DNA of 64,000 bases from Acidimicrobiia bacterium (GCA_028284765.1 JANQRA010000002.1:101061-165060); one strand, 5' to 3'; counted from the stretch's first letter, positions 32,329 to 49,281 are shown. Notes: a model not told the origin generated them from the letters alone. Made by a program: numbers and translations.

Positions 32329-32409
32329 TCGGCGTCAGACGCCGCGGGCGTAACCCCGACACCCTCAGTTAGGGTCTGACCGGAGCAACACAACTCTCGA
32401 GGAGGAGAA

Positions 32410-32676: not shown

Positions 32677-32719
32677 AGACTCAACCTCCCGATTTGGTCA
32701 CGGTCCGCAACAGCGGGCC

Positions 32720-33223
32720 GTGGCTTTCGTTTTAGGCTCATTTCAAATGGCAAGGTCTCTCACGCGCTCGGCACGACTCGCCGTCGCCTCCCTGATAGTG
32801 ACGGCTCTGGCGGCTCAGGCGTTGATCGGGGCCGCCAGCGACAACTACAGCCTCATGCGCCCCTTCTTCTGGTTCACGACAGTCGGAGGAGCAGTCACAG
32901 CCTTTTGCCTCACGATGCTGGCTATTCGACCAGACTCGGACTCGGCTCCAGCCTTCGCCACGTTTCGAGCGGCTACCACCGTCTACATGTTTGTTGTCGC
33001 TGTGACCTGGGTGTTTGCCCTTACTCAGACCGACATGGAGTTCGGCATTCCGGAAGCCTGGATCGACGTCTCGCTCCACGTCTTCGCCCCGCTATTCATG
33101 CTCGTTGATTGGCTCGTCAACCCTCCCCAGGCACCGCCGAACAAAGCGGCCATCGCAGGAACGGCCTTGATACCGGCTGTCTTCTTGATCTACGCCGTGG
33201 TCCTACCTGAGCAGGCACTGTGA
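32720..33223 (+). CDS. Hypothetical integral membrane protein (4-5 TM)
   Basis: Hydrophobic segments. Stop overlaps the next gene. Confidence 0.4.
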   Translation: MAFVLGSFQMARSLTRSARLAVASLIVTALAAQALIGAASDNYSLMRPFFWFTTVGGAVTAFCLTMLAIRPDSDSAPAFATFRAATTVYMFVVAVTWVFALTQTDMEFGIPEAWIDVSLHVFAPLFMLVDWLVNPPQAPPNKAAIAGTALIPAVFLIYAVVLPEQAL

Positions 33224-34191
33224 GCCTTCCACCACCACGCGATCTCGGGCATGGGATCTACACCATCGCTGCCCCTTTACCCTTCAAGTCACCGCCATGG
33301 GTGAACGTCTACATCGTCGAAGCTGGCGATGGGCTGCTGATGATCGACTGCGGCACCGATTGGGACGAGGGCCGGGACGCAATCAGGTCTGGATTTGCGT
33401 CACTTGGCCTAACCGAGTCGAGCGTTCACAGCTTGGTCGTCTCCCATCTCCACCTCGACCATGTGGGAATGTCGAAACGGCTCGTCGAGGAGTTGGGTTG
33501 CCGGTTCATCATGCACGAGAGGGCAAGCGAACTCGTCGATCGATACAACGACACCCCGGGATACATCCAAAGGCTGAGACAGATGGCAGTCGTCCACGGT
33601 ATCCCCGAGACGCTCGCCAACGCAGCGACCGACATCGAGCGTGCCCACTACATGCCGCTGATCGACAAGCCCGATCACGTTGTAGTCGACGGTGACCTGA
33701 TCGATCTCGGGGGCGGCCGATTCCTCGAAGTGCTGCACACGCCGGGACACGAGTCGGCCCACATCTGCCTCCGGGACAGTGCATCCGGCATTCTCTTCTC
33801 GGGCGACCATGTGTTGCCGCGAATCTCACCGGTCATCATGTACGACGGCGAGGGCGATCCGCTTGGCGACTACATGAACTCACTGCAGAGGCTCATTGAC
33901 ATCGGAATCCAACTTACGTACCCGGCCCATGGCCAGATCGTCGAACGTGGGGACGAGCGGGCGCGCCAGATCTTGCTTCACCATGTGCGGCGCCTTTCCG
34001 ATATGTCAGAGATGGTCCGAGAGGCCGATACAAATGCTTGGGAAGTCATGACGAAGTCGTTTCGACCGAATCTTGACCCCTTGCAGGCACGACTGGCCTT
34101 CTTGGAGACGATCTCACACCTCGAGCGACTGAGGCTCGACGGCCGAATCAACGGATACGACCGCGATGGCAAAGTGACATACGGTCGGTGA
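33220..34191 (+). CDS. MBL-fold metallo-hydrolase
   Basis: HLHLDHVG (HxHxDH motif)...HTPGHE.... Confidence 0.8.
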   Translation: MSLPPPRDLGHGIYTIAAPLPFKSPPWVNVYIVEAGDGLLMIDCGTDWDEGRDAIRSGFASLGLTESSVHSLVVSHLHLDHVGMSKRLVEELGCRFIMHERASELVDRYNDTPGYIQRLRQMAVVHGIPETLANAATDIERAHYMPLIDKPDHVVVDGDLIDLGGGRFLEVLHTPGHESAHICLRDSASGILFSGDHVLPRISPVIMYDGEGDPLGDYMNSLQRLIDIGIQLTYPAHGQIVERGDERARQILLHHVRRLSDMSEMVREADTNAWEVMTKSFRPNLDPLQARLAFLETISHLERLRLDGRINGYDRDGKVTYGR

Positions 34192-34264
34192 AAGGTTGGC
34201 ATGCGGCATGGTTTGGACGAATATGGGACACACGCGGTCAGATCGCGATCCCTGGGAAGGATGA

Positions 34265-34447
34265 TTGATGCTCTTTGGATATCTCGACGCAGGCTCCGGA
34301 AGCCTGATTCTTCAGGCCCTTCTGGGTGGCGCTGCCGGCATCCTCGTTGCTTTCAAGGCGTGGAAAGCACGCCTGATGGGCAAAGAAGCCATCGCAGAAG
34401 CCGAGGCCGAGGCCAACGCTGAAGAGTCAGTTCCGACCGACTCCTGA
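34265..34447 (+). CDS. Small membrane protein (60 aa, 1 TM, acidic Ala/Glu tail)
   Basis: MMLFGYLDAGSGSLILQALLGGAAGILVAFKAWKARLMGKEAIAEAEAEANAEE. Lies immediately upstream of the kinase/methyltransferase fusion. Confidence 0.3.
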   Translation: MMLFGYLDAGSGSLILQALLGGAAGILVAFKAWKARLMGKEAIAEAEAEANAEESVPTDS

Positions 34448-34455
34448 CCCGACCG

Positions 34456-35808
34456 TTGCCCTTGCGTGATCCGGGGTCCTTCCGCGATCCTGCATCTCAT
34501 GTCGTAGTCGAAGACGGGCGTGTTCTTCGTCTTCTAGACGAGCGGGGCCTCGAGGGATGGCAAGCCCTTGAACCTTCTAGCTTCTTTCGAGCTGCTGTCG
34601 CTGACGGTCGACTCGTCGCATCCAAGCTCATCGAAACCGAGACCGGCCCTGCCCTTGAGCATCCGAAGCTCCCATTTATCTCGTACCCCTATGAGTGGAC
34701 CTTTTCGATGTTGAAGGATGCCGCGCTTCTTCAACTCGACCTCCTCGAGGAGGCGCTGAAGGACGGCATCACAATCAAAGACGCCACTCCCTTCAACATT
34801 CAGTTTGTCGACGGCCGGCCCCTCTTCATCGACGTCGGCTCATTCGAGCGCTACAACCCCGGCGAACCCTGGTTGGGTTATCGACAGTTCACCCGACAGT
34901 TCCTCTTCCCGCTCATGCTGCACGCATGGGCAGGTGTTCCGTTCCAGCCATGGCTCCGAGGAAGCATGGAAGGGCCTTCGGCTGCCGACATGAAGCGTCT
35001 GCTCGGCTTCGGTAGAAGGGTTCGTCCGTCGGTGTTTCTCCACGTCTCTTTGCAGGCCCGAATGGAGCGAAATCTCGAAGGACAGTCGGTTCGCGACGGG
35101 CTCGAGAGCTCAGGTATGAACGCCGACCTCATACTCAACAACGTCCGGAAACTCCGGGCCCTTGTATCCAAGATCGAACTCGAGGTTGGCAACGAGGGAT
35201 GGATCTCATACGAGGAATGCACACACGTCGGTCGGGACCGGGAATCGAAAGCGGAGTTCCTCCGAGCTGCGATCAGCACCAACCCGCCTTCGAGGTTTCT
35301 CGACCTGGGTGCCAACGATGCCTACTTCTCGGAAATCGCATCCAGCGAGGGTGCGGTGGCAGTTGCGGTTGACGGTGACCAGCCAGTCCTCGATGCCGTT
35401 TATCGAAGAGGTAGCGATGTCAACATCGTGGTGTCGGACCTCACAAACCTGTCTCCGTCTCAAGGGTGGGCGGGAATCGAACGGCCCGATCTCGTCAGTC
35501 GCGCCAGCCCTGACATGGTCCTCGCCTACGGCATCATCCACCACCTCATATACACGGCGAGTGTTCCGCCCACTGCAGTTGTCGACTGGCTGTCTTCTTT
35601 CCGGTGCCCGGTGGTGGTTGAGTTCGTGGCACCTGACGACGAGATGGTTCAGACGCTGACCGCCAACAAACATGAAGACGAGCTGCACCCAAACCGCGAT
35701 AAGGACGCGTTCATCGCTCTGCTCCAAAGGGACTTCGAAGTGTTGGACACGCTGACGCTCGGCGACGGAACTCGTACCTTGTTCAGCCTTCAGCCGTCCT
35801 CGAGCTGA
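34456..35808 (+). CDS. Atypical kinase-like N-terminal domain fused to an FkbM-family SAM-dependent methyltransferase-like C-terminal domain (450 aa)
   Basis: N-terminus: ...KDATPFNIQFVDGRPLFIDVGSFERY, a catalytic-loop D..N and DVG in place of DFG. C-terminus: FLDLGANDAYFS, an FkbM-type DVGANxG motif. Confidence 0.45.
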   Translation: MPLRDPGSFRDPASHVVVEDGRVLRLLDERGLEGWQALEPSSFFRAAVADGRLVASKLIETETGPALEHPKLPFISYPYEWTFSMLKDAALLQLDLLEEALKDGITIKDATPFNIQFVDGRPLFIDVGSFERYNPGEPWLGYRQFTRQFLFPLMLHAWAGVPFQPWLRGSMEGPSAADMKRLLGFGRRVRPSVFLHVSLQARMERNLEGQSVRDGLESSGMNADLILNNVRKLRALVSKIELEVGNEGWISYEECTHVGRDRESKAEFLRAAISTNPPSRFLDLGANDAYFSEIASSEGAVAVAVDGDQPVLDAVYRRGSDVNIVVSDLTNLSPSQGWAGIERPDLVSRASPDMVLAYGIIHHLIYTASVPPTAVVDWLSSFRCPVVVEFVAPDDEMVQTLTANKHEDELHPNRDKDAFIALLQRDFEVLDTLTLGDGTRTLFSLQPSSS

Positions 35809-38287
35809 GACCTACTGAGTCGGCGACAGCCTTCTCACCGTATTCCGCAACCACGGTGACTCTGTCGACACCATCTGGGATGTCGTCACGCGAGATTTCG
35901 AGAGAGAACCCAGAACGGAGTAGATCTTCGCTGTCAAACCAACCAACGACGTTGCGGTTGTCTCGGTTGGGCTCAGTTGAGGCGATCAGCTGGTCTCCAA
36001 CAAAGACATAGAAGACGTCGGGCGGAACCTTGTTTCTCGTGTCAGCCCCCCACCCGATCATTTGATAGCCGTCGACAGTGGCCGTCACCTCGTCGACCTG
36101 GACCCTCAGACTTCCCTCGGTCACGACATCGATCTCACGTCCGTCCGGTGCTCTGAGCACGAGGTCGAGCTCCGTCGGAAGTCCCATTGTCAACGACTGG
36201 TCGGCATCAAGGCTGTACAGAGTGACCTGATTGGAACCGTCGAACACCCAGCTCTCACCCACGAGACCGATGAAGGACCCACCTTCGGTCGAGTCCCGAT
36301 TCAGCAGCGCCACGCCAGCGATCACGTCGTTAACTCCGATCAGCAGTGTGTCACCTACGTCTCCAGCCACGCGTCCGGTGAGCAGTGTCTGGACCTCACC
36401 TGACGACACCTCCACATCATTCAACGATGTACCCAGGTCGAGTGAATATGTGAATCCAGCTTCGCTGCTTGCTCCGATATCAGAGATCCTCATGCCAACA
36501 AACTGTGCGCCATCGCCCACTGCGGTCACCGACTCCCAAGACGACTGATCAGGCACCCGGGCATGGTTGGCTTCGACCTGGGCCAAGAGCGCGGCGATGT
36601 TGGTGTTCACGCCCGTTCCGTTGCAGCACCAGCGAATGGGCTCATGAGGTCTTTCCCGATCGAGGTCCAGCAAGGACGTTCCGTTGAACGACCAGTCGGT
36701 ATCTATATCCATGACGTCGACAATCGTTGGCATCAGGTCGACGCCGAATACCGGCAGGTCCACCGTCTCACCTACCGACTGATCCGGATACTTGATGAAC
36801 AGCGGCACGCGATACAAGTCGTCTCGATTGTCCTCGTATGGCCACCGCCGATGCTCGCCAGGCGTGAAAGATGCGCCGTGGTCGGCCACAACCACGATCA
36901 TTGTCTCGTCCCATGTGCTCGAGTCCTCGATGTGGTCGAGGAGCCTCAGCAGCATCGTGTCGAGAAAGCCGACCTGGTACAGATGTCGTTGAAAGCCGAG
37001 TAGTGCGGGGCCCGGATCGAGCGACCATCGACCGTCACCTTCCACCCCAAACACCTCCGTGTACTCCTCAGGTCGCTCGTAGTGAGTGCCTGAGGGGTTT
37101 GCCTCCCACGGCACATGCGGCGTCCGAAGGTGTGCGTAGCTGAGCGTTGGCTCCGTGCCTGCCTTGATTCCGTTGATCAGTCGCTGCACCCAGGTCACCC
37201 AATCCGGGCGCTGCCCCTCCGGTGGCACCGGAAGGCCTTCAATCTCCACGTCACTTCCCTCGACCTGGTTCGTCTGACCAAGAAAACCCTTCCATGCGTT
37301 CCCGATGCTCGGAAGCTGCTCCCTCGTGTCACCGGGCAGCGTCAGGTGTCCATACACCACCCCGACGTCGGCCAGAAGATTCCCAAATAGGGCAGGTGCG
37401 CGACCGGCGTAGTCAGGACAGATCTCTTCGGGGCAGAGCTCGGCGACCCATTCGATGACATGCATCTCGTGGCTGTCCTGGAGAAGAGTGAACAGGTTGT
37501 TCGGGTGGTCCAGGTAGGTCGGCTTCTTGTCTTCGTTGGACTTCGTCCCCGTCAGGATCGCGGGAACGCTCTGTGTAGTGGCGATCGAATCGGACAACGC
37601 ATTCCGATACCACGTGCCCAGTTCCGCAAGCCGGGCAAACCCGGGAAAGAGATCGTCATTGATACTGCCATCGGCCCGCATGATTGAGGCAACGGGCATC
37701 TCGTCGAGCTGAATCATCACCAAGTGGCTCGGCGCTTCTATCGCGACGGCTTCTCCGTCCTGTTCCGGCTCTTCCCAGATGAGACCTGCCGTGGGAGACG
37801 TTGCGAGGAACATCGCAATCAGCACAGGTACGGCTACAGCCGCCAACGCAAAGACGCTGTCGATGACGGTCGAAAGCCAGTAGAGCAGACCAGCGACAGC
37901 GAGCGCCATCCCAATCGCAAGCAACGTCTCGTCCGGCACGATCTGTCTCGCCACAACGAACCCGGTCGCTAGTGAAAGCACACCGATGAGAACCCGATAG
38001 GTGATCTTGAATGCCGTCGGCCCGACAAGCCTTGCAATCGCCAACGCGAGCAATGCCAGCGCCGGGATGAAGAGGCCGACGACGAAGGCGAAGAGGAACA
38101 GTTCGCTACCGGTCGTCCGATTGGCAACGAAGACCTCGGGGTTCCGGCCATAGATATCGAGAATCGGAGCAACAAAAGCAACCGCTGCCAGTCCTGTTAT
38201 GACCGCCAGCGGTTTCCAGATCGAAGTGGAGTCTTTGCTCGCCACGTGCCTGGAGAACGGTACAGGCACACCTTCCCAAACAGACAT
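35783..38287 (-). CDS. Sulfatase-like hydrolase/transferase (LtaS / alkaline phosphatase superfamily) membrane protein, 834 aa
   Basis: An N-terminal multi-TM region followed by a periplasmic catalytic domain with VVVADHGASF, ...TQSVPAILTG, and a long C-terminal beta-rich extension. Confidence 0.65.
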   Translation of the reverse strand: MSVWEGVPVPFSRHVASKDSTSIWKPLAVITGLAAVAFVAPILDIYGRNPEVFVANRTTGSELFLFAFVVGLFIPALALLALAIARLVGPTAFKITYRVLIGVLSLATGFVVARQIVPDETLLAIGMALAVAGLLYWLSTVIDSVFALAAVAVPVLIAMFLATSPTAGLIWEEPEQDGEAVAIEAPSHLVMIQLDEMPVASIMRADGSINDDLFPGFARLAELGTWYRNALSDSIATTQSVPAILTGTKSNEDKKPTYLDHPNNLFTLLQDSHEMHVIEWVAELCPEEICPDYAGRAPALFGNLLADVGVVYGHLTLPGDTREQLPSIGNAWKGFLGQTNQVEGSDVEIEGLPVPPEGQRPDWVTWVQRLINGIKAGTEPTLSYAHLRTPHVPWEANPSGTHYERPEEYTEVFGVEGDGRWSLDPGPALLGFQRHLYQVGFLDTMLLRLLDHIEDSSTWDETMIVVVADHGASFTPGEHRRWPYEDNRDDLYRVPLFIKYPDQSVGETVDLPVFGVDLMPTIVDVMDIDTDWSFNGTSLLDLDRERPHEPIRWCCNGTGVNTNIAALLAQVEANHARVPDQSSWESVTAVGDGAQFVGMRISDIGASSEAGFTYSLDLGTSLNDVEVSSGEVQTLLTGRVAGDVGDTLLIGVNDVIAGVALLNRDSTEGGSFIGLVGESWVFDGSNQVTLYSLDADQSLTMGLPTELDLVLRAPDGREIDVVTEGSLRVQVDEVTATVDGYQMIGWGADTRNKVPPDVFYVFVGDQLIASTEPNRDNRNVVGWFDSEDLLRSGFSLEISRDDIPDGVDRVTVVAEYGEKAVADSVGLSSRTAEG

Positions 38288-38374
38288 ACTCCCGACCCGT
38301 GCTTAACTCTCTCTAAGGCCGTCGGGAACCATCAACAGCCAGCTCAGCGTCTTACATCTCAGGGAGATGTCTCA

Positions 38375-39973
38375 TTGACCGACAAGCGACGAGGATTCCT
38401 GAATAGAATCCGATTTCGAATCAGGCTGGCATGGTTAGCGGCCACCGCGCAGCGCTACGCGCCACATGCGCTGACCGTCATCGTGCTGATTCTGGGCCTG
38501 GACTGGCTGACTCCTTTCGATCAAGGGCTCGTGGCTTCGATGGCTGTCGCCGTGGTCTTCGCTCTGGGCCTCCTGCTTCGCTCGGCGACTATGCGTATCT
38601 CCGATTGGGACGCATCCAGAGCCGCAGAACGGGGCCTCGAAGCCCGTGACACGCTGACCACTGCGCTTGAGTTCTCCGACCCATCCGATCCGGCACATAG
38701 ACAGATTCAGAGCCAAGCGGACAAAATCGCATCCAGTTCTCAGCCTGCGGCCGCCATTCCAATCCGTTCAGATCGCTCGTATCTGCGACGGTCAGCCTGG
38801 CTAGCTGCGCTGGTCCTGGCCCTTGCCCTCCTTCCCCCACTCGGCTCATCACCGGCCCTCTCCTCGAACCTGAAGACGGCCGTTGAAGCCGAAGCCGAGA
38901 AGATCGAGGAGCTGGCGGAGGCCGCACGTGAAACCGACGTTGAGAACGCGGATGAGATCGCCGCCGAACTCGAACGGCTGGCCGAGGAGCTGAGAAAGGC
39001 TGAGACCCTCGAAGACGCTTTTGAAGCCCTTGATAACTCCGATCAGCGGCTGGAGGCGCAAATCGATCCAACATTCCTCTCCCAAAAGGCCGCGGCGCAA
39101 GGACTCGCACGCGACCTCTCACTGAGACCTATCGCCGAAGGAGCACTCGATGCGTCTTCGCAGTTCGAACAGGCGGCCGACGAACTCGATGAGCTTTCCG
39201 AGCAAGAGTTGAGGGCTCTGCAGGATCGACTCCAGGATCTCGCCGAATCACAATCAGCTGGCAACTCGGCTCTGTCGAGTCAACTGTCCGAAGCGGCCCA
39301 AGCCCTGAACTCAGGCGACCTGTCAAGGGCCGCCGATGCTCTGCGCGAAGCGGCTGCAAGCCAGCAACAGGGCGTTTCCGACGCACGGGATCAGCAAGCA
39401 CTCTCAGAGACCCGCCGAGCACTCGATGGAGTGAGCGCCCGGCTCGGCGGCGCTGCACGCGAAGGCCAGGGAGAAGGCGAAGGCCAGGGAGAAGGCCAGG
39501 GCCAGGGAGAAGGTCAAGGTCAGGGTGAAGGTCAAGGTCAGGGAACCGGTGGTAGCGGTAGTAGTGGCGAAGGTGGTACTCCTGGTGCAGACGGCAGTCC
39601 GTCCGGGGCCATAGGTGGGGTCAATCCCGGTGATGGCAATGCCCAAGGCCAGGGCGGCCAAGGCAGCGTCTCCGGAAGGCAGGGCGAAGACCTGGGCACC
39701 GCACCCGACTCGGCCTCGGTCTATGACCCCATCGCGGAAGGCGGTTTCTCCGACCTCATCCAGGTGGGAATCGACGGAGGCACGGGTGACGGAGATGTGG
39801 TCGGACGTGGTGACGCTCCAACCACCCAGGGTGAGTCGGTCGTCCCGTACGCACAAGTTCTGCCCGAATACCTGAACCAGGCTGCAGACGCACTTGGCGA
39901 AGTTCAACTGCCGCCCTCGATGAGATCAATCGTCCAAAGCTATTTCGACCTCCTCGCAGACCAAGCGAGGTAA
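38375..39973 (+). CDS. Membrane-anchored coiled-coil protein with a Gly/Gln/Glu repeat; first gene of the MoxR-DUF58-VWA operon
   Basis: Two N-terminal TM helices, an Ala/Glu-rich coiled coil, and (GQGEGE)n low complexity. The C-terminus reads ...SMRSIVQSYFDLLADQAR. I chose the TTG start near 38375 (GGGAG RBS); the ORF track starts at 38246 and would overlap the divergent gene. Confidence 0.5.
   Translation: MTDKRRGFLNRIRFRIRLAWLAATAQRYAPHALTVIVLILGLDWLTPFDQGLVASMAVAVVFALGLLLRSATMRISDWDASRAAERGLEARDTLTTALEFSDPSDPAHRQIQSQADKIASSSQPAAAIPIRSDRSYLRRSAWLAALVLALALLPPLGSSPALSSNLKTAVEAEAEKIEELAEAARETDVENADEIAAELERLAEELRKAETLEDAFEALDNSDQRLEAQIDPTFLSQKAAAQGLARDLSLRPIAEGALDASSQFEQAADELDELSEQELRALQDRLQDLAESQSAGNSALSSQLSEAAQALNSGDLSRAADALREAAASQQQGVSDARDQQALSETRRALDGVSARLGGAAREGQGEGEGQGEGQGQGEGQGQGEGQGQGTGGSGSSGEGGTPGADGSPSGAIGGVNPGDGNAQGQGGQGSVSGRQGEDLGTAPDSASVYDPIAEGGFSDLIQVGIDGGTGDGDVVGRGDAPTTQGESVVPYAQVLPEYLNQAADALGEVQLPPSMRSIVQSYFDLLADQAR
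39461..39546 (+). repeat. In-frame hexanucleotide-based tandem repeat encoding GQGEGEGQGEGQGQGEGQGQGEGQGQG
   Basis: gaaggccagggagaaggcgaaggccagggagaaggccagggccagggagaaggtcaaggtcagggtgaaggtcaaggtcaggga. Imperfect GGNCARGGNGAR units. Confidence 0.8.
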
Positions 39974-39989
39974 CCGAGGAGATGATCAA

Positions 39990-40991
39990 GTGAACATGGA
40001 CCTGGACAGATATCAGCAGACAGCTCTATCGATCGAAGCAGCTGTTGGAGCCCGCATTGCCGGCCAACCTGAGCTCATTCGGCAAACCCTCGTAGGTCTT
40101 CTCGCTGAAGGTCACGTCCTACTGGAGGGCGTGCCTGGACTCGGCAAGACCGAACTGGTCAAGGCGTTCTCCGAGGCCATCGGTGTTGATTTTGCCAGGG
40201 TGCAATTCACTCCCGATCTGATGCCCGCAGATATCGTCGGGACCCAGGTTCTCTCGGAAGATGAGGCGGGCAGGCGAAAGTTTGAATACCAACCGGGACC
40301 GGTGTTCACCAATCTGCTGCTAGCAGACGAGATAAATCGAGCGACACCCAAGACTCAGGCCGCGCTGCTCGAAGCCATGCAGGAACGACAGGTGACTGTC
40401 GCTGGCAGGACTCGCGATCTCCCAAGACCCTTTCTCGTGTTGGCCACCCAGAATCCAATAGAACTGGAGGGGACCTACCCACTTCCGGAAGCACAGCTGG
40501 ACCGGTTCATGTTCAAAGTGACGGTCAGTCCCCCGACCTCCGAAGTCATGGAGGAGATCCTGCGGAGAACAACTGGTGGATTCGTTCCTGAGGTGCCTCT
40601 GGCCACAGATGTCGAGACAATTTCATCAATGATCGCGACCACTCCCGGACACCCAGTGGCGGGCCACCTTCTCACATATGTCTCACGAATCGTGGAGGCC
40701 TCTCAACCGGATGGGAACACTGCCACTCCTCCCGTGAAGCGCTATGTCAGGTGGGGCTCCTCCCCTCGTGGGGCACAAGCGATCGTGTTGGCGGCCAAGG
40801 CAGCTTCTCTCATCGAGGGCAGATCTCACGTGTCTGCCGAAGACATCCGCTGGGCGGCACCTGCAGCTCTGCGCCATCGGCTGGTTCTTGGCTATGAAGC
40901 GGCCGCCGAGGGAGTCAAGCCCGACGTGATCGTCGAGGAGATCTTGAACAGCACTCCCGAACCGAAACCCGACATTCGAGGAACTCCATGA
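39990..40991 (+). CDS. MoxR-family AAA+ ATPase
   Basis: GHVLLEGVPGLGKTELVKAFSEA (Walker A); LLADEINRATPKTQAALLEAMQE (Walker B / sensor); VLATQNP. Confidence 0.9.
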   Translation: MNMDLDRYQQTALSIEAAVGARIAGQPELIRQTLVGLLAEGHVLLEGVPGLGKTELVKAFSEAIGVDFARVQFTPDLMPADIVGTQVLSEDEAGRRKFEYQPGPVFTNLLLADEINRATPKTQAALLEAMQERQVTVAGRTRDLPRPFLVLATQNPIELEGTYPLPEAQLDRFMFKVTVSPPTSEVMEEILRRTTGGFVPEVPLATDVETISSMIATTPGHPVAGHLLTYVSRIVEASQPDGNTATPPVKRYVRWGSSPRGAQAIVLAAKAASLIEGRSHVSAEDIRWAAPAALRHRLVLGYEAAAEGVKPDVIVEEILNSTPEPKPDIRGTP

Positions 40992-41845
40992 CACTGCTCA
41001 GCCCGGCCTTGATGGCCAGGCTCGAGAGCTTGCAACTGATGAGTAGAAACCGGCTCCTCGGCCGATTCGGCGGTGAGCACAAGTCCAAGCGATATGGGAA
41101 CACCATCGACTTCGCCGACTTTCGCGAGTACCACCCTGGCGACGACTTCCGGCGAATCGACTACCACGTAATGGCACGGCTCGACCAAGTGTTGATCAAG
41201 CTCTTCGAAGCCGACGACGAAATCACAGTTCGGTTCCTCGTCGACACCTCCTCTTCAATGGACATCGGCGGGAAACTGCATCAGGCCAAGAAGCTCGTAG
41301 CTGCTCTTGGCTTCATCGCGCTCAGCGCTCACGACTCGGTCTCGGTTCACACATTTCCCAACGAGGGAATCAGCACCCGCTTTGCGGGGAGGGCTTCCAT
41401 CCCGTCGTTTCTGGGCCATACCGAGACCTTGACGGCCGATGGTGTCACGCCGTTTGCCGAGGCAGCCGGCCACCTCCTCAGCAGAGGCGGGCTGCCTGGA
41501 CTGACCGTGGTGGTATCCGACCTCTTGACGGAAGAGTGGGCGAGCCTCACAAAGCTCCGGTCTTCCGGATCGGACGTAACGGTGCTTCATGTTCTCTGTG
41601 AAGAGGACCTCAACCCGGATTACACCGGCGACCTCGAGTTGGTCGACACGGAGGTAGGTGACAGGCTCACTGTCAGCGTCACCGAAGACGTTGCTTCCTC
41701 GTACCGGGACCGTGTCGCCAGATGGCGAGATGATGTGGCCCGAACCGTGCGCGGCTCGGGATCGTCCTACGTCCCCGTTGACGCATCCGACGACGTCGAA
41801 GAACTCCTGCTCCAGACCTGGCTCAGCGAGGGCGTCCTGAGGTGA
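40988..41845 (+). CDS. DUF58 domain protein (VWA-like; MoxR partner)
   Basis: GEHKSKRYGNTIDFADFREYHPGDDFRRIDYHVMAR is the DUF58 signature. 4-bp overlaps with both neighbours. Confidence 0.85.
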   Translation: MTLLSPALMARLESLQLMSRNRLLGRFGGEHKSKRYGNTIDFADFREYHPGDDFRRIDYHVMARLDQVLIKLFEADDEITVRFLVDTSSSMDIGGKLHQAKKLVAALGFIALSAHDSVSVHTFPNEGISTRFAGRASIPSFLGHTETLTADGVTPFAEAAGHLLSRGGLPGLTVVVSDLLTEEWASLTKLRSSGSDVTVLHVLCEEDLNPDYTGDLELVDTEVGDRLTVSVTEDVASSYRDRVARWRDDVARTVRGSGSSYVPVDASDDVEELLLQTWLSEGVLR

Positions 41846-44800
41846 GTCTCCTCGCTCCGGCGGGTCTAGCCGCCGTCCTCCTTGCGGTGCCAATCCTCCT
41901 GTTGCACATGCTGACTCCTAGGCGGCCGGCCACGAAAGTGTCATCTCTCCTCCACTGGGATGGACTGAAGCACTCGATCACTGCTGCGGAGCCGTGGCAG
42001 AAGCTTCGATGGTCGATCCTTCTCATCTTGCAGCTTCTGGCGGTGGTGTTGTTCGCAATGATCCTCGCAAGACCGGCCGTCCTCGAGGAGGCCGAACTCG
42101 CCGAGCACACGGTCTTCATCGTCGACGCTTCAGGGTCGATGGCGGCCATCGACGGTGATCCCGATCGTCTGGGATCTGCCGTCGAGCAGGCCACACTACT
42201 CCGCAGCGAATTGCCAGACGCCGGCGTGGCATCGTTGGTCATAGCCTCCCCGGACCCGATCGTGCTGGTCACCCAGAGCTCCGATGAATCCGAGTTCGGA
42301 AGTGCTGTCGACACTGTCAGGACCAACGGAGGGGCTGCCGACTTCGAGGCTACGTTTGCACTGGCCGAATCGCTGGTGCTCCCTGATCGTGAGACTGACT
42401 TCGTTCTGATCAGCGACGGCCAGCTGACTGAGACCGAACAGAAGCTCGCTCCTCTCGGAACCAGATACGTGCCCATTGGCCTCACGGACACCAACCGCGC
42501 CGTGGCCGATCTGTCCGTCAACGCCGGCCCCGGTGGTCTGCAAGCCCGGGTTCGGGTGGAATCCACCGGAGGACCGGACGCAATCCAGACCCTTCGGCTG
42601 GACGTAGACGGCGTGACCGTCCTCTCACAGGAGATCGAGATTCCAGGTGGTGGCATCTTTGAAGACACCTTCGAACTCCCGGCAGGCACCAGGGTCGCCG
42701 CTTTCTTGGACGGGGACGACCTGCTGGCTTACGACAACCAGCGTTACGTTGGCGCACCAGTTCTCGGCCAGTTGAAGGCGAGGATCGTCGGCGAGTCGAC
42801 GTTCTTCGTCGAGCAACTCCTCAGTGCCATACCGGACGTCGACACCGACGTCGCTCTTGGCGAAGAGGTCGATTTCGAGATCTACGTCGGAGCTGCGGTC
42901 CCTGCGGAGCCGACCGTTCCTTTCATCGCCATCGACGCGCCGGGCGGCGCGCCCGGCGTCCTTTCAACCGGGAGAATCGAGAACCCGGTTCCTACTCTTG
43001 TTGCTGACCACCCGTTGCTCGACGAGGTAGATGTCAGCAGAATCGGGATCGCCGAAGCCCAGCAACTGCAGGTGACCAATGGGGAGGTCGTGCTTGGCGC
43101 ACCCGGCGCTCCCCTGATCGTCGAGAGCTCCTTTGGGGATGTCCCCTTCTACTACGTGGCCTTCACGCTGGAGCAATCCAACCTTCCGATCGACATCTCT
43201 TTCCCGATCATCGGCGCTCGCATGGTGGGCGGATTGGCAACCGCTGGTGGAGTAGCCGACGGGCTCACGGTCGGCGACAAGGTGCCCGTGGGCACCTTGG
43301 GTGGCATCGTCACAGATCCAAGGGGAGACCAGACAATCATCTCTACCGGCGACTCGGAACCTGTCGCCAACAAAGCCGGGTTCTGGATCGTCGAACCAAA
43401 TCAGGGCGATTCGTATGAAATCGCGGTGAACGCCTCCAACACCGAATCAGCACTGGAACCTAAATCTGAACTTGAGGCATTGCGACCCGATCCGGTGGGA
43501 CAAGGCGAGTTCGTTGATGCAACGACAACAATCGCCCGCACACTTCTCCCCTGGTTCGTAGGCGCACTTCTGATCGTTCTTGCGGTCGAGCTCTACTTCA
43601 GCTTCCGAGCACGAGGTGTCACACGTCGTCAATGGAATGTTGGTCTTGGAGTGCGTGCCTTGATCGTCGGGCTCTTGGTTCTGGGACTGGTCAATCCCGT
43701 CTTCCAGAGAAGCTCAGACGACGTGACAACGGTTTTTGTTGTGGACGTATCAGCCTCGGTTGGAGAGGCCAGCAGGCAACAGGCCGTCTCATGGGTTGAG
43801 GCTGCCCTGACTGATAACCAAGGCGGACAGTGGGCTGTTGTGGAATTCGGCGCCGACGCCAGAGTCGGCACTCCGATCGGCACCGATCCGTATCGTCGTG
43901 CGCGAGGCGTCGAAACCGAGTCGACGAACATCGCGCGAGGCCTGCGTCTCGGAGAATCGGTCCTCACCCCCGGCACGAAACAACGGCTGGTGCTCGTGTC
44001 AGACGGACGGGCCAACAACGGCGATCTCCAAGCTGAGCTCGACCGGCTCAAGACGCTGGGCGTCGTAGTGGATGTTCACACCATCGCCACCAGCAACACC
44101 ACCGATGCGGCCATCGCCGGGCTCGACATGCCATCGTCGGTGAACACGGGCGAAGCCTTCGACATCGAGGTCGAGGTTCTGGCGACAATCTCCGGCTCTG
44201 CCGTGGTGGATCTCAGCGACGCATCAGGTGTCATCTCCAGCCAAGATGTCCAACTCGCGCCCGGATCGAACTCAGTCGTGTTCTCAACCGTCGCCGGCGA
44301 ACCCGGACTCCAACAATTCGACGCAAAGGTGAGACTCAACGGTGACGGGGTGCCCGAGAATGACGAACTTCGCGCCGGGGTAGAGGTTCGGGGGCCCGCC
44401 AGCGTCCTGGTCATCGAAGGGGAACAAGACAACGGCGACGTCCTGGAAGGAGTACTCCGCTCAACCGGCTTGGAGGTCGATCGTGTCGTTGTCGATGAAA
44501 TGCCGGGAGTGCAGGAGATGTCGATCCATCGCGCGGTTGTGCTGGTCGACGTCAGCGCCCGCGACCTCAACGAAACCAAACTCAACAATCTGAACACTGT
44601 GGTGCGGGACCTCGGTCGAGGGCTGGTCGTCGTCGGGGGTACCCACTCCTACGGGCTAGGGGGGTATCGCGACACACCGTTGGAGGCTCTGCTGCCGGTC
44701 GATTCCGAAGCTCCCGACAAGGAACGCGAGGCATCAGTCGCCGAGGTTCTTCTGATCGACACCAGTGAGTCCATGGGGGCTTGTCACTGTGACGAGTCCG

Positions 44801-46194
44801 GCAGCAACAGTTTCGAGGGTGGTGTCAACAAGACGGACATCTCCAAGGCCGCCGCTGTCAAGGCGATCGAGGCGCTTGGCGCCAACGACGCTGTCGGAGT
44901 GCTGGCGTTTTCGGGCGACAGCCGATGGGTGGTTCCACTCCAGGAATTCCCGGACCGAGACACGATCGACGACGGCATAGGAAGCCTACGCCCCTTCGGC
45001 GAGACCCGGATAGTCCCAGCCATCGAGAAGGCAGCAGAAGAGCTTCTGGCTTCCGACAAGGAGCTGAAGCACATCATCTTGTTCACAGACGGGTTCACCG
45101 CGGAGTTGGAAATTGGGGCGGAGTTCGTCGGACAGCCCTTTGCCAAAGATCTGGTCGAAACCGTGGAACGAATTGCTGACCAGGGAGTCACGGTTTCGGT
45201 GGTGGGTACCGGCGAAGGTGCAACACCGGCCCTCGAAGTGGTGGCCGAGGCCGGCAACGGCCGCTTCTACCCCGGCAGAGACCTGAACGAGATCCCGGAG
45301 ATCTTCGTCAAAGAAGCACGGCTCGCGTCACGAAGCTACATCAACGAGGGCGAGTTCTTCCCAACCGTTACTTCCACTTCGGCCGCAGTGAGGAATCTTG
45401 CATCATCGCCGGCCCTCCTCGGATATGTGGCCACCACTCCGAAACCAACAGCTGACGTGCAGCTCCAGGTCGGAGAGCTGGCAGATCCGCTGTTGGCGTC
45501 GTGGCGGGTGGGTCTCGGCAAAGTCACCGCCTGGACCAGCGACGGTGGTGAGAAATGGGGTGCCCAGTGGGCGTCTTGGGACGGATACGGAGATTTCTGG
45601 TCCAACGTGGTGCGGGACACGTTCCCCCTCACTGGTTCGGACGGTCAGCGACTCGAGGCGTCGATCTCAGAAGAGTTGATGACCATTCGCCTCGAGGGCG
45701 CAGAAGTCTTCGAGTCAGGATTCGAACCGACAGTTCGCATCAGCTACCCAGACGGGACCTTCTCCGAGCTCCGCCTAGATCGCGTGTCGGACTTCGAGTT
45801 TCAAGCCGTTGCGCCGGCCCGACAGGGCGGCACCTACGCGATCGGTGCCAACGTGGCTGACTCCAGCGGAGAGACAGCGGTCATCTCAACCCTGGCGACC
45901 AGGTCGTTCGCCGCTGAGTTCCTACCGGGGCCCGCAGACGAAGACCTGATGAGCTCAATCTCCACGGCCACCGGCGGCCGAGGCGAGATCACATCCGCAC
46001 AGGCTTTCGATCCCGAAGGCCTCGAGGAGGGCGTTACCGAACGTCAGTACCGTTGGTGGTTCCTGCTGCTGGCGGCTTTGCTCTGGCCAATCGACGTCGC
46101 TCTGCGTCGACTCCGCCTTTCCCGAGGAGATAGGTCAGGCCAGCCACCGAAATCAGAAGCGCCCCAGCCCACACCCACCACACAAGCGGTCTGA
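41842..46194 (+). CDS. BatA-like membrane protein with an aerotolerance-regulator N-terminal double-TM domain and three VWA domains (1450 aa)
   Basis: N-terminus SLLAPAGLAAVLLAVPILLLHMLTPRRP is BatA_N-like. VWA MIDAS motifs occur at VFIVDASGSMA, VFVVDVSASVG and VLLIDTSESMG. The C-terminal TM is WWFLLLAALLWPIDVAL. Confidence 0.8.
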   Translation: MSLLAPAGLAAVLLAVPILLLHMLTPRRPATKVSSLLHWDGLKHSITAAEPWQKLRWSILLILQLLAVVLFAMILARPAVLEEAELAEHTVFIVDASGSMAAIDGDPDRLGSAVEQATLLRSELPDAGVASLVIASPDPIVLVTQSSDESEFGSAVDTVRTNGGAADFEATFALAESLVLPDRETDFVLISDGQLTETEQKLAPLGTRYVPIGLTDTNRAVADLSVNAGPGGLQARVRVESTGGPDAIQTLRLDVDGVTVLSQEIEIPGGGIFEDTFELPAGTRVAAFLDGDDLLAYDNQRYVGAPVLGQLKARIVGESTFFVEQLLSAIPDVDTDVALGEEVDFEIYVGAAVPAEPTVPFIAIDAPGGAPGVLSTGRIENPVPTLVADHPLLDEVDVSRIGIAEAQQLQVTNGEVVLGAPGAPLIVESSFGDVPFYYVAFTLEQSNLPIDISFPIIGARMVGGLATAGGVADGLTVGDKVPVGTLGGIVTDPRGDQTIISTGDSEPVANKAGFWIVEPNQGDSYEIAVNASNTESALEPKSELEALRPDPVGQGEFVDATTTIARTLLPWFVGALLIVLAVELYFSFRARGVTRRQWNVGLGVRALIVGLLVLGLVNPVFQRSSDDVTTVFVVDVSASVGEASRQQAVSWVEAALTDNQGGQWAVVEFGADARVGTPIGTDPYRRARGVETESTNIARGLRLGESVLTPGTKQRLVLVSDGRANNGDLQAELDRLKTLGVVVDVHTIATSNTTDAAIAGLDMPSSVNTGEAFDIEVEVLATISGSAVVDLSDASGVISSQDVQLAPGSNSVVFSTVAGEPGLQQFDAKVRLNGDGVPENDELRAGVEVRGPASVLVIEGEQDNGDVLEGVLRSTGLEVDRVVVDEMPGVQEMSIHRAVVLVDVSARDLNETKLNNLNTVVRDLGRGLVVVGGTHSYGLGGYRDTPLEALLPVDSEAPDKEREASVAEVLLIDTSESMGACHCDESGSNSFEGGVNKTDISKAAAVKAIEALGANDAVGVLAFSGDSRWVVPLQEFPDRDTIDDGIGSLRPFGETRIVPAIEKAAEELLASDKELKHIILFTDGFTAELEIGAEFVGQPFAKDLVETVERIADQGVTVSVVGTGEGATPALEVVAEAGNGRFYPGRDLNEIPEIFVKEARLASRSYINEGEFFPTVTSTSAAVRNLASSPALLGYVATTPKPTADVQLQVGELADPLLASWRVGLGKVTAWTSDGGEKWGAQWASWDGYGDFWSNVVRDTFPLTGSDGQRLEASISEELMTIRLEGAEVFESGFEPTVRISYPDGTFSELRLDRVSDFEFQAVAPARQGGTYAIGANVADSSGETAVISTLATRSFAAEFLPGPADEDLMSSISTATGGRGEITSAQAFDPEGLEEGVTERQYRWWFLLLAALLWPIDVALRRLRLSRGDRSGQPPKSEAPQPTPTTQAV

Positions 46195-47854
46195 CGAAGA
46201 TGCTGACATCGACAGTCTCGCCGTCGGGAAACAGCAAAGAAGTCGCCACGATCACATCCCGCGACGGCCCTGAGAGCAGGGCCGGTTCTGCGACCGGCAG
46301 GCTCTGATCCTCGAACGCTCTGATCTCGGGAGCCAACCCCCTCCCGTCGACATCGAAATCGGCTCTGACATACAGGTAGCGATCTTCCTCTCCACTGGAT
46401 ACCTCATTGAGCGTGATCGTGATGCCGGAGACTTCAACCGAGTCACCTACCTGCATTGGCCCCTCGAAGTCTTCTCCGAAGGAGCTGCCAGCCACCCCGA
46501 ATAGCAAGATTGCCATTCCCAGGTGCGCCATCCGCAGTGACAGCTGCCGCCGGCGTGGTCGCCGCCCCACCAGGTCTGCAACCAGAACCGCGATGCTGCC
46601 CACAGCCGGAGCGGTGAGCAACAGGCCAATGCCTGGTCCATAAACCCAAGCGGTCAGGGCCGCGCCAATCGCTCCGGACCAGCTGAATAGCGCCCAGCGC
46701 CGGCTCACCGCGAGACTCAAGAAAACGGCGATGAGGACTGCGATGGGAAGGATTGTCAGGACGAAGAAACGCGCATCGACGATCAACGTCTCCGCGAAGA
46801 ACACTGATCGGAATGCGGGATAAAGAGACCCAGCGGTGACAAACGCCAGCGCAGCCGACACAAGGATGGCACTCACGTTGAGCCAACCCCTCCTGCCCTT
46901 CCAAGCCACCGGTGCGCCTCTGGGTTCGCGAAGGGTCGCAATCGACAACACACCCAACACGAGAAGTGTCGAGACGAACAGGACGAGGCCGACTGACGGG
47001 TCTTCGGCGAACGAGTGGATCGACCCGGTGATCCCTGATCGCGTTAGATATACCCCGACGACCGTGAGGGCAAACGGAATTCCTGCCAGATAGGTGTTCG
47101 TGCGGACAAGAGAATTGGTGGCTTCCTCAACACGCGACGAGTGGAGGAAAACGGTCGCTGCGAGCCATGGCATCAACGAAGTGTTCTCCACCGGGTCCCA
47201 AGCCCAATAGCCGCCCCAACCGAGTTCAACGTATGCCCAACTGGCGCCGGCGACCATGCCGACGGTGAGGATGGTCCAAGAGAAGTAGAGCCAAGCTCTC
47301 GTTTCGACCAGCCAGCTGCTGAGCTCCAAGTCTCCGAACGACTTGTCCATGGTCTTGGCGAACGCGACGATCAGCGAGGTGAGCCCGAGGTAGAGAATCG
47401 GCGGGTGGTAGATCATCGCTGGATGCTGGAGGATGGCCAGAAGGCCCATGCCATCGACAGCGGGTACATCAAGAGTGGTGAATGGGTTGGCAAACACAGC
47501 CGTGATTCCCAACAGGGCGAGTCCTACCGCCGCGGCAGCGCGGACCCCAGCGCGGCCTAGCGAGGCGAAGGAGGCCACCGCCAAGGTCATGGCCGAGTAG
47601 AAGAGAATGGAGCCTTCCATGCCACCCCAAAGCGCAGCCATTCGGTACGGCCACGGTGTGGCCAGCGAAGTGGTGCGAACGACGTAGTCCAGGCTGAAAT
47701 CCGAACTGACCAGGGCATAGGCCAGGGCAAGAGTCGATAGGGCCGAGAGCAGCGCGGCCAGCCGAAGAGTGCCACGTCTCCCGGTGACGAGTCCGGCCAG
47801 CGCCACGCCGATCGCAGCCATGAGCAGTGCGCTACCGATCTCGGCGACCGTCAC
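46034..47854 (-). CDS. ccmF: Cytochrome c-type biogenesis heme lyase CcmF/NrfE family
   Basis: N-terminus VSSDFSLDYV...WGGMEGSILFY (compare CcmF NDFSVxYV...W..HEGS.LLW). The WWD motif is WGGYWAWDPVEN. About 13 TM. No other ccm genes are visible in the window. Confidence 0.7.
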   Translation of the reverse strand: MTVAEIGSALLMAAIGVALAGLVTGRRGTLRLAALLSALSTLALAYALVSSDFSLDYVVRTTSLATPWPYRMAALWGGMEGSILFYSAMTLAVASFASLGRAGVRAAAAVGLALLGITAVFANPFTTLDVPAVDGMGLLAILQHPAMIYHPPILYLGLTSLIVAFAKTMDKSFGDLELSSWLVETRAWLYFSWTILTVGMVAGASWAYVELGWGGYWAWDPVENTSLMPWLAATVFLHSSRVEEATNSLVRTNTYLAGIPFALTVVGVYLTRSGITGSIHSFAEDPSVGLVLFVSTLLVLGVLSIATLREPRGAPVAWKGRRGWLNVSAILVSAALAFVTAGSLYPAFRSVFFAETLIVDARFFVLTILPIAVLIAVFLSLAVSRRWALFSWSGAIGAALTAWVYGPGIGLLLTAPAVGSIAVLVADLVGRRPRRRQLSLRMAHLGMAILLFGVAGSSFGEDFEGPMQVGDSVEVSGITITLNEVSSGEEDRYLYVRADFDVDGRGLAPEIRAFEDQSLPVAEPALLSGPSRDVIVATSLLFPDGETVDVSIFVRPLVWWVWAGALLISVAGLTYLLGKGGVDAERRRLARAKPPAAGTTNGTDVR

Positions 47855-47935
47855 CGTCTGTTCTGCCTCCGGGCCATGGAGTCAAATTACCCCTGCCTTG
47901 ACCGAAGTCATCGAGGGGCAGGTACCGTCGCTCCG

Positions 47936-49270
47936 ATGACCGACCTCTTCGAGGCCCGCGCCGAGGCATTCGCCGCCCAGACCGCTCCCCTGGCGACCCG
48001 GATGCGCCCGCGGACACTCGATGAAGTTGCGGGCCAGACCCACTTGCTGGCATCCGATTCTGCCTTCCGACATATCGCAGCCTCATCCAACCCGATTTCG
48101 CTGCTGCTCTGGGGACCTCCCGGAACAGGCAAGACCACTCTTGCCTCGATCGTTGCCAAGAATGCCGAAGCCGCGTTCGAGACACTTTCTGCAACCTCAG
48201 CCGGGGTGAAAGACATTCGCGGCGTCCTGGCTGGCGCCAAACAGCGACTGGCTACCGAGGAACGGCGAACGGTCCTGTTTCTCGACGAGATCCACCGTTT
48301 CGCCAAGAACCAACAGGACGCACTGCTCCCCGGAGTCGAAGACGGGACGCTGATCCTGATCGGAGCAACTACCGAGAACCCCTACTTCGAAGTCAACTCG
48401 CCGTTGATGTCGCGCATGACGCTGTTCCGCCTCGAGTCGCTGACACCGGATGAGATCCATGCACTCTTGAATCGGGCCCTCGACGACCCTGAGCGAGGCC
48501 TCGGCGCCATGGGTCTCACCATCGACTCAGACGTCGCCACTGAACTCGCCACCCGAACCGGCGGCGACGCACGTCAGTCTCTCAACTCCCTGGAGGTCGC
48601 GGCCCGAATGGCCGAGGCCGCAGGCCGACAGGAGATCACATTCGACGACGTTTCCGAGGCGTTGCAACGGCGCTTGGTGCGCTACGACAAGACCGGCGAT
48701 TCTCACTACGACGTCATATCCGCGTTCATCAAGTCGATAAGGGGGTCAGACCCCGACGCAGCGATGTATTGGCTGATGCTCATGCTCGAAGGCGGTGAAG
48801 ACCCAGAGTTCATTGCCCGACGGCTGATCATCCTTGCCTCTGAGGACGTCGGCCTTGCAGATTCCGAAGGGATCAGTGTCGCGGTGTCGGCGGCTGAGGC
48901 TCTCGCCTACGTTGGCCTGCCCGAAGCCCGCTACCACCTGGCTCACGCCACCCTGTTTCTTGCAACTGCAGCGAAGTCCAACTCTGTGGGACGGGCGATG
49001 AGAGCAGCCCAAGAGCTCGTCGAAGGCGGTCCCACCCCATCGGTTCCTCCTCATCTCCGTTCCAGCAGTTACTCCGGTGCATCGGACCTTGGGCACGGAG
49101 AGGGATACGTATACCCCCACGACGACCCGCTGGGCGTCGCCAAGCAGCAGTACTTCCCAGACGGGGTTGACCCAAGGCCCATCTTTCGCCCTGGGCATCA
49201 TGGGCACGAGAAAGACATCGCCGACCGTCTTTCCAAGATCGACGAGATCTTGGGACGACGAGGTCGCTGA
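47936..49270 (+). CDS. rarA: Replication-associated recombination protein A (RarA/MgsA AAA+ ATPase)
   Basis: MRPRTLDEVAGQTHLL...LLLWGPPGTGKTTLA...VLFLDEIHRF. I used the internal ATG (MTDLFEARAE). Confidence 0.85.
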   Translation: MTDLFEARAEAFAAQTAPLATRMRPRTLDEVAGQTHLLASDSAFRHIAASSNPISLLLWGPPGTGKTTLASIVAKNAEAAFETLSATSAGVKDIRGVLAGAKQRLATEERRTVLFLDEIHRFAKNQQDALLPGVEDGTLILIGATTENPYFEVNSPLMSRMTLFRLESLTPDEIHALLNRALDDPERGLGAMGLTIDSDVATELATRTGGDARQSLNSLEVAARMAEAAGRQEITFDDVSEALQRRLVRYDKTGDSHYDVISAFIKSIRGSDPDAAMYWLMLMLEGGEDPEFIARRLIILASEDVGLADSEGISVAVSAAEALAYVGLPEARYHLAHATLFLATAAKSNSVGRAMRAAQELVEGGPTPSVPPHLRSSSYSGASDLGHGEGYVYPHDDPLGVAKQQYFPDGVDPRPIFRPGHHGHEKDIADRLSKIDEILGRRGR

Positions 49271-49281
49271 GACCTGCGTGC

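Follow-up and report, generated by a model that had tools for sequence, protein, structure and literature searches.

Here we report the analysis of a four-gene locus, at positions 38375-46194 on the plus strand, within a 64,000-nucleotide (nt) stretch of DNA from an Acidimicrobiia bacterium (GCA_028284765.1, JANQRA010000002.1:101061-165060), hereafter the window, in which positions are counted from the first letter. The four genes encode, in this order, a membrane protein that we call the lead protein, a MoxR-type AAA+ ATPase, a DUF58 protein, and a large protein of 1450 amino acids (aa) that combines a BatA_N domain with three von Willebrand factor type A (VWA) domains. We estimate a probability of about 60% that this locus is a chromosomal, vertically inherited operon encoding a MoxR-driven cell-envelope complex. 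Its structural and evolutionary description, which is drawn from sequence comparison, is in our judgement very probably correct: the evidence favours an origin of the large protein by fusion of two neighbouring membrane proteins, the lead protein belongs to a conserved family, and the region upstream of the lead gene contains what looks like an extracytoplasmic function (ECF)-type promoter. MoxR proteins are AAA+ chaperone-like ATPases working with VWA partners and, to our knowledge, few bacterial gene clusters without a known mechanism are as widespread as the MoxR-DUF58-VWA operons.

Results

Gene order and its conservation

The genes of the locus are closely packed (Table 1). A 16-nt gap with the ribosome-binding site GAGGAG inside it separates the lead gene from the MoxR gene, and the two following junctions are 4-bp overlaps, ATGA between the MoxR and DUF58 genes and GTGA between the DUF58 gene and the large gene, whose GTG start lies on the DUF58 stop. 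The original prediction, made from the DNA sequence of the window, had described tightly packed MoxR, DUF58 and BatA-like genes overlapping by 4 bp each and an operon divergent from an LtaS-like gene; the reading frames and both junctions are as it placed them, and the upstream divergent gene (35783-38287, minus strand) indeed encodes a sulfatase/LtaS-like membrane protein.

For comparison, we collected 41 species-level loci with the lead protein, as well as loci of individual homologues. Wherever an Acidimicrobiia species locus had sufficient sequence, more than 30 loci in all, the order of the lead, MoxR, DUF58 and fused-protein genes was the same, and the lead reading frame was kept beside moxR in all relatives examined. 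The named homologues come almost entirely from metagenome-assembled genomes (MAGs) of Acidimicrobiia. A closer clade also keeps the divergent sulfatase gene and the convergent gene that follows the cassette in the window, a CcmF-like gene on the minus strand; the ccmF linkage is clade-specific and is missing in locus L004, in the loci with a split large gene and in the Deinococcus loci. In two distant Acidimicrobiales loci, L002 and L004, three same-strand genes lie directly ahead of the cassette; they encode a domainless protein of 740-770 aa, an ATP-binding cassette (ABC) ATPase and an ABC-2 permease.

The 1450-aa protein as a fusion

The large protein begins with a double transmembrane (TM) domain followed by a VWA domain with a metal-ion-dependent adhesion site (MIDAS), which is the BatA-type arrangement, and both the Pfam matches and the motif positions agree with the earlier description of a terminal protein carrying BatA_N and three MIDAS-containing VWA domains. 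A search with the last 889 aa of the protein (aa 562-1450), run against the representatives of 1.8 billion clusters, matched 9032 clusters at E<=1e-3, of which 3487 remained at E<=1e-30. The best matches were mostly stand-alone proteins of 850-1010 aa that aligned end to end (query ~8-870) at 31-42% identity, with fused forms of 1450-1640 aa making up about 35 of the top 150 matches. The N-terminal module has its own counterpart in relatives, a stand-alone BatA-VWA protein of ~670-690 aa: in a tblastn search it matched the 671-aa BatA-VWA gene of locus L048 (E 5e-25), and the 688-aa protein of locus L052 is matched too. These two loci, which come from uncultured lineages, present the same parts as separate neighbours with 4-bp overlaps, the order being lead-like protein (613 aa), MoxR, DUF58, BatA-VWA (688 aa) and a two-VWA/GATase1-like protein (899 aa) in L052, and MoxR, DUF58, BatA-VWA (671 aa) and a two-VWA protein (986 aa) in L048.

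Pairwise BLASTP among the three VWA domains and the three modules gave nothing significant (E>=0.003), and profile comparison by hhalign found the VWA domains mutually equidistant (E 1e-11 to 1e-13, no closest pair), a similarity at superfamily level, and the two TM hairpins of the protein mutually unrelated. Given the end-to-end stand-alone homologues, the split loci, the equidistant VWA domains and the unrelated hairpins, the evidence favours an origin by fusion, in which a BatA-like membrane protein with one VWA domain was joined to a membrane protein of the widespread two-VWA/GATase1-like type. It had been asked at the outset whether the three VWA domains arose by internal triplication or by fusion; the stand-alone homologues and the split loci speak for the latter, and triplication was rejected on the distance between the domains.

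In the AlphaFold model of the C-terminal module (mean predicted local distance difference test score, pLDDT, 72), a TM hairpin is followed by VWA2, a beta-sandwich, an alpha/beta domain and VWA3, and then by a low-confidence stretch at the GATase1_like match, a second beta-sandwich and the C-terminal TM helix. The Foldseek matches of this module are VWA structures, including BatB (3ibs) and a Bacteroides fragilis aerotolerance-related protein (4jdu). We infer an N-out/C-in topology with five TM helices for the large protein, which would leave the VWA domains, the beta-sandwiches and the GATase1-like domain outside. The parts facing the cytoplasm would then be limited to the BatA_N loop (aa 25-56), which is nearly invariant, a loop of 9-11 residues and the C-terminal tail.

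The MIDAS of VWA3 runs into an invariant MGACHC (DTSESMGACHC, aa 973-983, window 44758-44790), and the Cys-x-Cys that follows this MIDAS is kept in 21 of 29 fused representatives and in 26 of 100 stand-alone homologues. The Cys-His-Cys may form a second metal site or a redox-sensitive site next to the MIDAS. The GATase1_like match, located after VWA3 (window 45343-45612), covers only profile positions 151-242 of 247, and the alpha/beta domain modelled just before VWA3 (aa ~854-956, window 44401-44709) has no assignment; VWA3 may be inserted into a GATase1-like domain.

A conserved family of lead proteins

The lead protein belongs to a family of 304 homologues of 505-560 aa, all labelled hypothetical and none with a Pfam domain. 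Its most conserved motif, WDASRAAERGLxARDxLTTALEF, lies in a segment of ~65 aa; the N-terminus is Arg-rich, and at the other end the conserved-looking C-terminus noted earlier, SIVQSYFDLLADQAR, is conserved in fact, with Y523 and F524 invariant in 18 homologues. By motif and profile matches, the family extends beyond Acidimicrobiia, being found upstream of MoxR in split-gene lineages and in Deinococcus as well. In the distant lead protein of L052 the TALEF motif recurs, together with GQ/GKD dipeptide repeats and RYFQL near the C-terminus. On plasmid pDAETH-2 of Deinococcus aetherius, a 477-aa hypothetical protein whose C-terminal end contains VSAYF is encoded directly upstream of MoxR, and hhalign aligned it with the lead profile over aa 75-162 with a probability of 95.5% (E 1.6e-8). 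A profile search with the lead N-terminus reached barely beyond Acidimicrobiia, the sensitivity of this search being limited by its word index.

Two features first ascribed to the lead protein are revised here. From the AlphaFold model and charge counts, it most likely carries three TM helices, not two, and AlphaFold predicts a compact helical domain in place of a long Ala/Glu coiled coil. According to the positive-inside rule, aa 73-139 would be cytoplasmic and everything after TM3 would lie outside. An assignment to DUF4175 or DUF4129, which had been suggested as a possibility, also failed to hold: the lead protein and 17 homologues searched against Pfam at E<=1 matched neither family and gave only spurious, scattered coiled-coil noise, the lead protein had no match in NCBIfam at E<=0.01, and none of the four operon proteins matched the hidden Markov models (HMMs) of DUF4129 or transglutaminase. 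The alphaproteobacterial DUF4175/TIGR02302 proteins have 2-3 N-terminal TM helices and a long extracytoplasmic Gln/Gly-rich low-complexity region. The likeness of the lead protein to them is one of general description, and any homology would be conjectural: neither the window protein nor any of the 18 family members had an HMM match at E<=1, and the assignment was rejected.

In a public assembly, the lead gene is called from GTG 38246 (575 aa), so that the additional stretch (window 38246-38374, L005 6405-6533) spans both the promoter motif described below and the sulfatase start. On the basis of the homologue alignment, the conserved position of the ribosome-binding site and start, and the promoter footprint, we take TTG 38375 to be the correct start and the GTG 38246 call to be over-extended.

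A glycine-rich tract of variable length

An in-frame hexanucleotide repeat had been reported at 39461-39546, and Tandem Repeats Finder recovers it with nearly the same limits (Table 1), at a period of 18 (also 6/12) with 4.6 copies, 89% matches and a score of 117, as one of just two arrays in 8.5 kb. The longest perfect stretch in it is 23 nt, and 12- and 18-nt sub-duplications that look recent can be seen in the tract. Nearly every species-level lead homologue has a (Gly-X)n tract, for the most part Gly-Gln/Glu. Measured in 42 species-level loci, this tract spans 8-70 aa (median 34), which makes the 30 aa of the window ordinary, and its length shifts rapidly between species; the closest relative, L006, whose large protein is 82% identical, has 46 aa. 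Despite this variation, the total length of the lead protein stays at 514-554 aa. An independent assembly of the same organism, the Logan contig L005, is 100% identical to window positions 31842-51574 (19,733 bp), repeat included. A codon-degenerate pattern of the repeat flanks had no match in the metagenomes of the Joint Genome Institute (JGI), the exact lead protein was absent from the protein collection, and the 90% cluster of the large protein there has a single member.

As judged from these alignments, the tract is a family-wide low-complexity linker that forms part of a disordered tether. Slippage is a plausible origin of the changes in its length; an on/off phase switch is not possible, because the units are multiples of 3 and imperfect.

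A putative ECF-type promoter

The 87-nt intergenic region between the divergent sulfatase gene and the lead gene was aligned across 12 species whose lead proteins share no more than 55-65% identity. Throughout this alignment GGGAACC and CGTC do not vary, and no indel falls between them. In 44 of 47 loci, the lead start is preceded at a distance of 15-25 nt, nearly always 19-25 nt, by the pattern G[GA]AAC-N17/18-CGT[CT]; the three remaining loci are from Acidimicrobiales and have the lead gene abutting that of the ABC-2 permease. Each locus has a single copy of the strict form GGGAACC-N14-18-CGTCNTA. Characteristic of ECF promoters are AAC in the -35 element, CGT in the -10 element and a rigid spacer (PMC5758882, PMC6411747), with GGAACA given for Mycobacterium tuberculosis SigH (PMC6411747). 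The conserved motif upstream of the lead gene thus looks like an ECF-type promoter, which would place the system in an envelope-stress regulon and offers a prediction of the sequence that the sigma factor concerned recognizes. Scans for sigma-70 promoters and terminators gave counts at chance level, and the window contains no Rfam family or tRNA.

A second conserved intergenic motif, TGCTT(A/T)ACT, is located at 38300-38308, with 13 nt between it and the sulfatase start codon on the divergent side. It probably belongs to the expression signals of the sulfatase gene, because the spacing between the two conserved motifs, this one and the ECF-like one, differs from species to species.

MoxR and DUF58 proteins

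The ATPase matched AAA_3 (PF07726, 3.7e-64) and AAA_lid_2 (PF17863, 4.1e-17) in Pfam and the PDB structure 2r44 (1.8e-68), and it contains the Walker A motif GVPGLGKT and the Walker B motif LLADE. With its ATPase core, lid and Walker motifs, and with the gene of a DUF58/VWA partner adjoining its own, it has features expected of the MoxR Proper (MRP) group. The DUF58 protein (PF01882, 3.3e-26) has a MIDAS of its own, in which DxSxS reads DTSSS.

Table 1. Coordinates of the genes, protein segments and DNA features of the locus. Gene and DNA positions refer to the window, residue numbers to the protein named.
Feature	Position	Strand	Description
Putative ECF-sigma-type promoter	38324-38354	+	GGGAACC (-35), N17, CGTCTTA (-10); 23 nt before TTG 38375
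Lead gene	38375-39973	+	TTG start, 532 aa, membrane protein, no family model
Lead TM hairpin (predicted)	lead aa 21-72		Basis: alignment, AlphaFold, charge counts
Lead conserved segment	lead aa 73-139		Predicted cytosolic; WDASRAAERGLxARDxLTTALEF, positively charged flanks
Lead TM3 (predicted)	lead aa 140-158		
Lead acidic all-helical ectodomain (predicted)	lead aa 159-363		pLDDT >90, isoelectric point 4.2
Lead disordered Gly/Gln/Glu-rich tether (predicted)	lead aa 364-491		~130 aa, pLDDT ~30, 34% Gly, holds the repeat
In-frame imperfect repeat	39462-39544	+	Encodes (G-Q/E)15, within the disordered tether
Lead C-terminal helical hairpin (predicted)	lead aa 492-532		Invariant Y-F-[D/E]
MoxR-type AAA+ ATPase	39990-40991	+	333 aa
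DUF58 protein	40988-41845	+	285 aa, soluble, VWA-like
Large BatA_N/VWA gene	41842-46194	+	GTG start, 1450 aa
N-module of large protein	41842-43524	+	BatA_N, VWA1, then ~350-aa region without assigned domain
C-module of large protein	43525-46194	+	TM3/TM4, VWA2, VWA3, GATase1_like, beta-sandwiches, C-terminal TM
BatA_N double-TM	large protein aa 1-78		PF07584, 5e-08 on full protein, 3.4e-09 on aa 1-300
VWA1 (VWA_2)	large protein aa 90-194		MIDAS DASGS at aa 95
TM3/TM4	large protein aa 567-620		
VWA2	large protein aa 630-722		MIDAS DVSAS at aa 635
VWA3	large protein aa 969-1155		MIDAS DTSES at aa 973
GATase1_like, C-terminal half	large protein aa 1168-1257		
C-terminal TM	large protein aa 1403-1423		

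Discussion

Relation to known MoxR systems

The Bat operon and the RL3499-type MoxR-DUF58-VWA operons are relatives of the locus, which would function in a similar way and is a lineage-specific form of a known kind of system. With the Bat operon and the spirochaete genes BB0170-BB0176 it shares MoxR and DUF58 followed by membrane proteins with a BatA double-TM domain and a MIDAS-bearing VWA domain, as well as a VWA fold near those of BatB (3ibs) and the B. fragilis protein (4jdu). The predicted location of the VWA domains outside the membrane is likewise in line with the BatA-like protein BB0173 of Borrelia, whose VWA domain was shown by experiment to be periplasmic (PMC5700661). In contrast to the Bat operon, for which tetratricopeptide-repeat (TPR) partners are a defining feature, neither the four genes nor their flanks encode the TPR/SH3 proteins BatC, BatD and BatE or any TPR, BatD or SH3 domain, a 532-aa membrane protein is encoded ahead of MoxR, a single 1450-aa polypeptide carries three VWA domains, a GATase1-like domain and beta-sandwiches, and the host is a monoderm actinobacterium.

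RL3499-RL3502 of Rhizobium leguminosarum is also a four-gene MoxR-DUF58 operon with large membrane partners, and RL3499 is an MRP member important for membrane integrity and cell morphology (PMC3893208). The likeness in gene count extends to the split loci L052 and L048, in which two large membrane proteins follow DUF58, whereas in the window this membrane pair is fused and the extra lead protein is encoded first. L052 has the order of the window with a lead-like gene in front and 4-bp overlaps; the difference from both split loci is that the BatA-VWA and two-VWA proteins are separate genes there. Fused versions of the system are present on plasmids of Deinococcus aetherius and Ketogulonicigenium. 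On the Deinococcus aetherius plasmid, the 477-aa hypothetical protein ahead of MoxR has the same predicted cytosolic motif, and the BatA-VWA protein has 1334 aa. The ectodomain of the lead protein takes other forms outside the Acidimicrobiia: L052 has a Lys/Glu coiled coil, and Deinococcus a Ser/Thr/Pro-rich region that is disordered.

A literature search returned nothing on the lead family or the fused architecture, and the database labels are 'hypothetical protein' or 'VWA domain-containing protein'. The lead family represents a conserved extra component without a family model that recurs upstream of MoxR in several phyla, and the natural fusion argues that the BatA-like and the two-VWA/GATase1-like proteins work as a single unit.

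Alternative functions

Several other functions can be considered for the locus or its parts. The lead gene could be a contingency locus, in which slipped-strand length variants of a surface protein provide antigenic or functional variation; the original prediction had called the repeat a candidate for slipped-strand length variation. The strong difference in tract length between close relatives, the 12- and 18-nt sub-duplications and the predicted extracytoplasmic position of the tract are what such a locus would show; however, units of 6, 12 and 18 nt cannot produce a frameshift switch, the repeat is imperfect, the presence of the tract is constant in the family while protein length remains steady, the sole independent assembly of the same organism is identical, and the lineages are free-living environmental MAGs with no known host immune pressure. 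We therefore regard a contingency locus as unlikely.

Quite unlikely, too, is a role as a metal chelatase or cofactor-insertion system comparable to ChlI/ChlD or CobS/CobT, which would deliver metal or haem to an extracytoplasmic client, perhaps together with CcmF. This idea draws on weak NCBIfam matches to BchD/ChlD and cobaltochelatase and on the JGI label 'Mg-chelatase subunit ChlD', but those matches reach 21-36 bits against cut-offs of about 500-780 (for example, 36 versus 499), and no ChlH/CobN-like catalytic subunit is encoded at the locus. MoxR family members do activate metalloenzymes (PMC3893208). The conserved Cys-His-Cys right after the VWA3 MIDAS would suit a metal-handling protein, yet it is absent from 74 of the 100 stand-alone homologues, and the convergent ccmF gene, which overlaps the 3' end of the large gene and is syntenic in the clade, is not linked to the cassette in L004, the split loci or the Deinococcus loci. 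A biological-conflict (anti-phage) MoxR-VWA system of the NTP-dependent ternary type is very improbable: the bpMoxR family PF20030 matches the ATPase at 1.9e-9, far below the strength of its AAA_3 match, Pfam finds no beta-propeller or effector domain in the operon proteins, PADLOC gives weak, generic P-loop matches only, and the core synteny among housekeeping genes is conserved across the class, unlike that of mobile defence islands. Identity as a defence system was rejected on these grounds.

A proposed model of the envelope complex

For the preferred reading, a MoxR-driven cell-envelope complex, we propose a mechanism of envelope maintenance by analogy with the related systems; it is tentative, and we would put it at somewhat less than even odds. 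MoxR, as a cytoplasmic AAA+ hexamer, and DUF58, as a soluble VWA-like MIDAS adaptor, would act from the cytoplasmic side, docking on aa 73-139 of the lead protein and on the BatA_N loop (aa 25-56) and other cytoplasmic parts of the large protein. The three VWA domains, the two beta-sandwiches, and the acidic helical domain, tether and Y-F-[D/E] hairpin of the lead protein would face outwards, where MIDAS-bound cations could bind acidic ligands, the candidates being the lead ectodomain, its tethered hairpin or wall-associated partners. MoxR would use ATP to remodel the assembly or conformation of the resulting scaffold in answer to envelope stress signalled through an ECF sigma factor, and the output would be envelope integrity under stress, as in the rhizobial RL3499-RL3502 and the Bacteroides Bat systems. 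Replication slippage would alter the length of the tether over evolutionary time, with no switching of the gene on or off.

Several points weigh against this interpretation. The function is carried over from distant systems that are themselves without a known mechanism, and the Leptospira Bat mutants are reported to have yielded no clear function (PMC3557215). The contacts of MoxR and DUF58 with the membrane proteins, and of a MIDAS with the lead C-terminus, are conjecture; the topologies come from hydropathy and charge alone, TM1 of the lead protein being weakly hydrophobic, and the AlphaFold models are of moderate confidence, with a predicted template modelling score (pTM) of ~0.4. No ECF sigma factor gene (Sigma70_r2/r4) was called within 10 kb on either side, and the loose form of the promoter motif is not enriched in the window (5 observed versus 6.95 expected), so that what supports the promoter is its phylogenetic footprint together with its constant placement before the lead gene.

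A more elaborate version, which we think unlikely to hold with all its parts, joins the lead and fused three-VWA proteins into a hitherto undescribed, ECF-controlled trans-wall apparatus of monoderm Actinomycetota. From the cytoplasm, MoxR and DUF58 would use ATP to relay changes of conformation to the other side of the membrane. The (Gly-Gln/Glu)n tract would serve as a length-tunable tether or ruler that lets the Y-F-[D/E] hairpin reach and plug a MIDAS site, and a sensor of redox state or metal would be provided by the Cys-His-Cys beside the MIDAS of VWA3. If this were true, the lead family would be a missing core component of the very widespread MoxR-BatA class.

Neighbouring genes and related arrangements

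Running towards each other, the large gene and the CcmF-like gene share 161 nt at their 3' ends (46034-46194), and this shared part encodes the conserved C-terminal TM helix of the large VWA protein. Comparable overlaps of ~100-170 nt between the two genes occur in the relatives L001, L006, L009 and L010.

ABC-transporter genes directly precede the cassette in Acidimicrobiales and in other lineages (L002, 5931-9990; L004, 5769-10004; L051, 1-3632; L048, 402-1517; L049, 517-3020). The preceding set is often an ABC ATPase, an ABC-2 permease and a domainless protein of 560-770 aa, and in Deinococcus a substrate-binding protein (SBP), a permease and an ATPase; the ABC and 740-aa genes have no counterpart beside the window cassette.

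Elsewhere in the window, a second ATPase gene, of the AAA_5 type, is located at 2336-3349, between a 695-aa reading frame without a Pfam match (277-2364) and a LOG/lysine-decarboxylase-like gene (3371-4453). A permuted arrangement was found on a plasmid of Ketogulonicigenium robustum (L050, 5497-12649), where hypothetical proteins of 157 aa and 441 aa and a BatA-vWA protein of 1181 aa are followed by an AAA ATPase and DUF58, and the 441-aa protein has an ALTTAL motif at the position equivalent to that of the lead motif.

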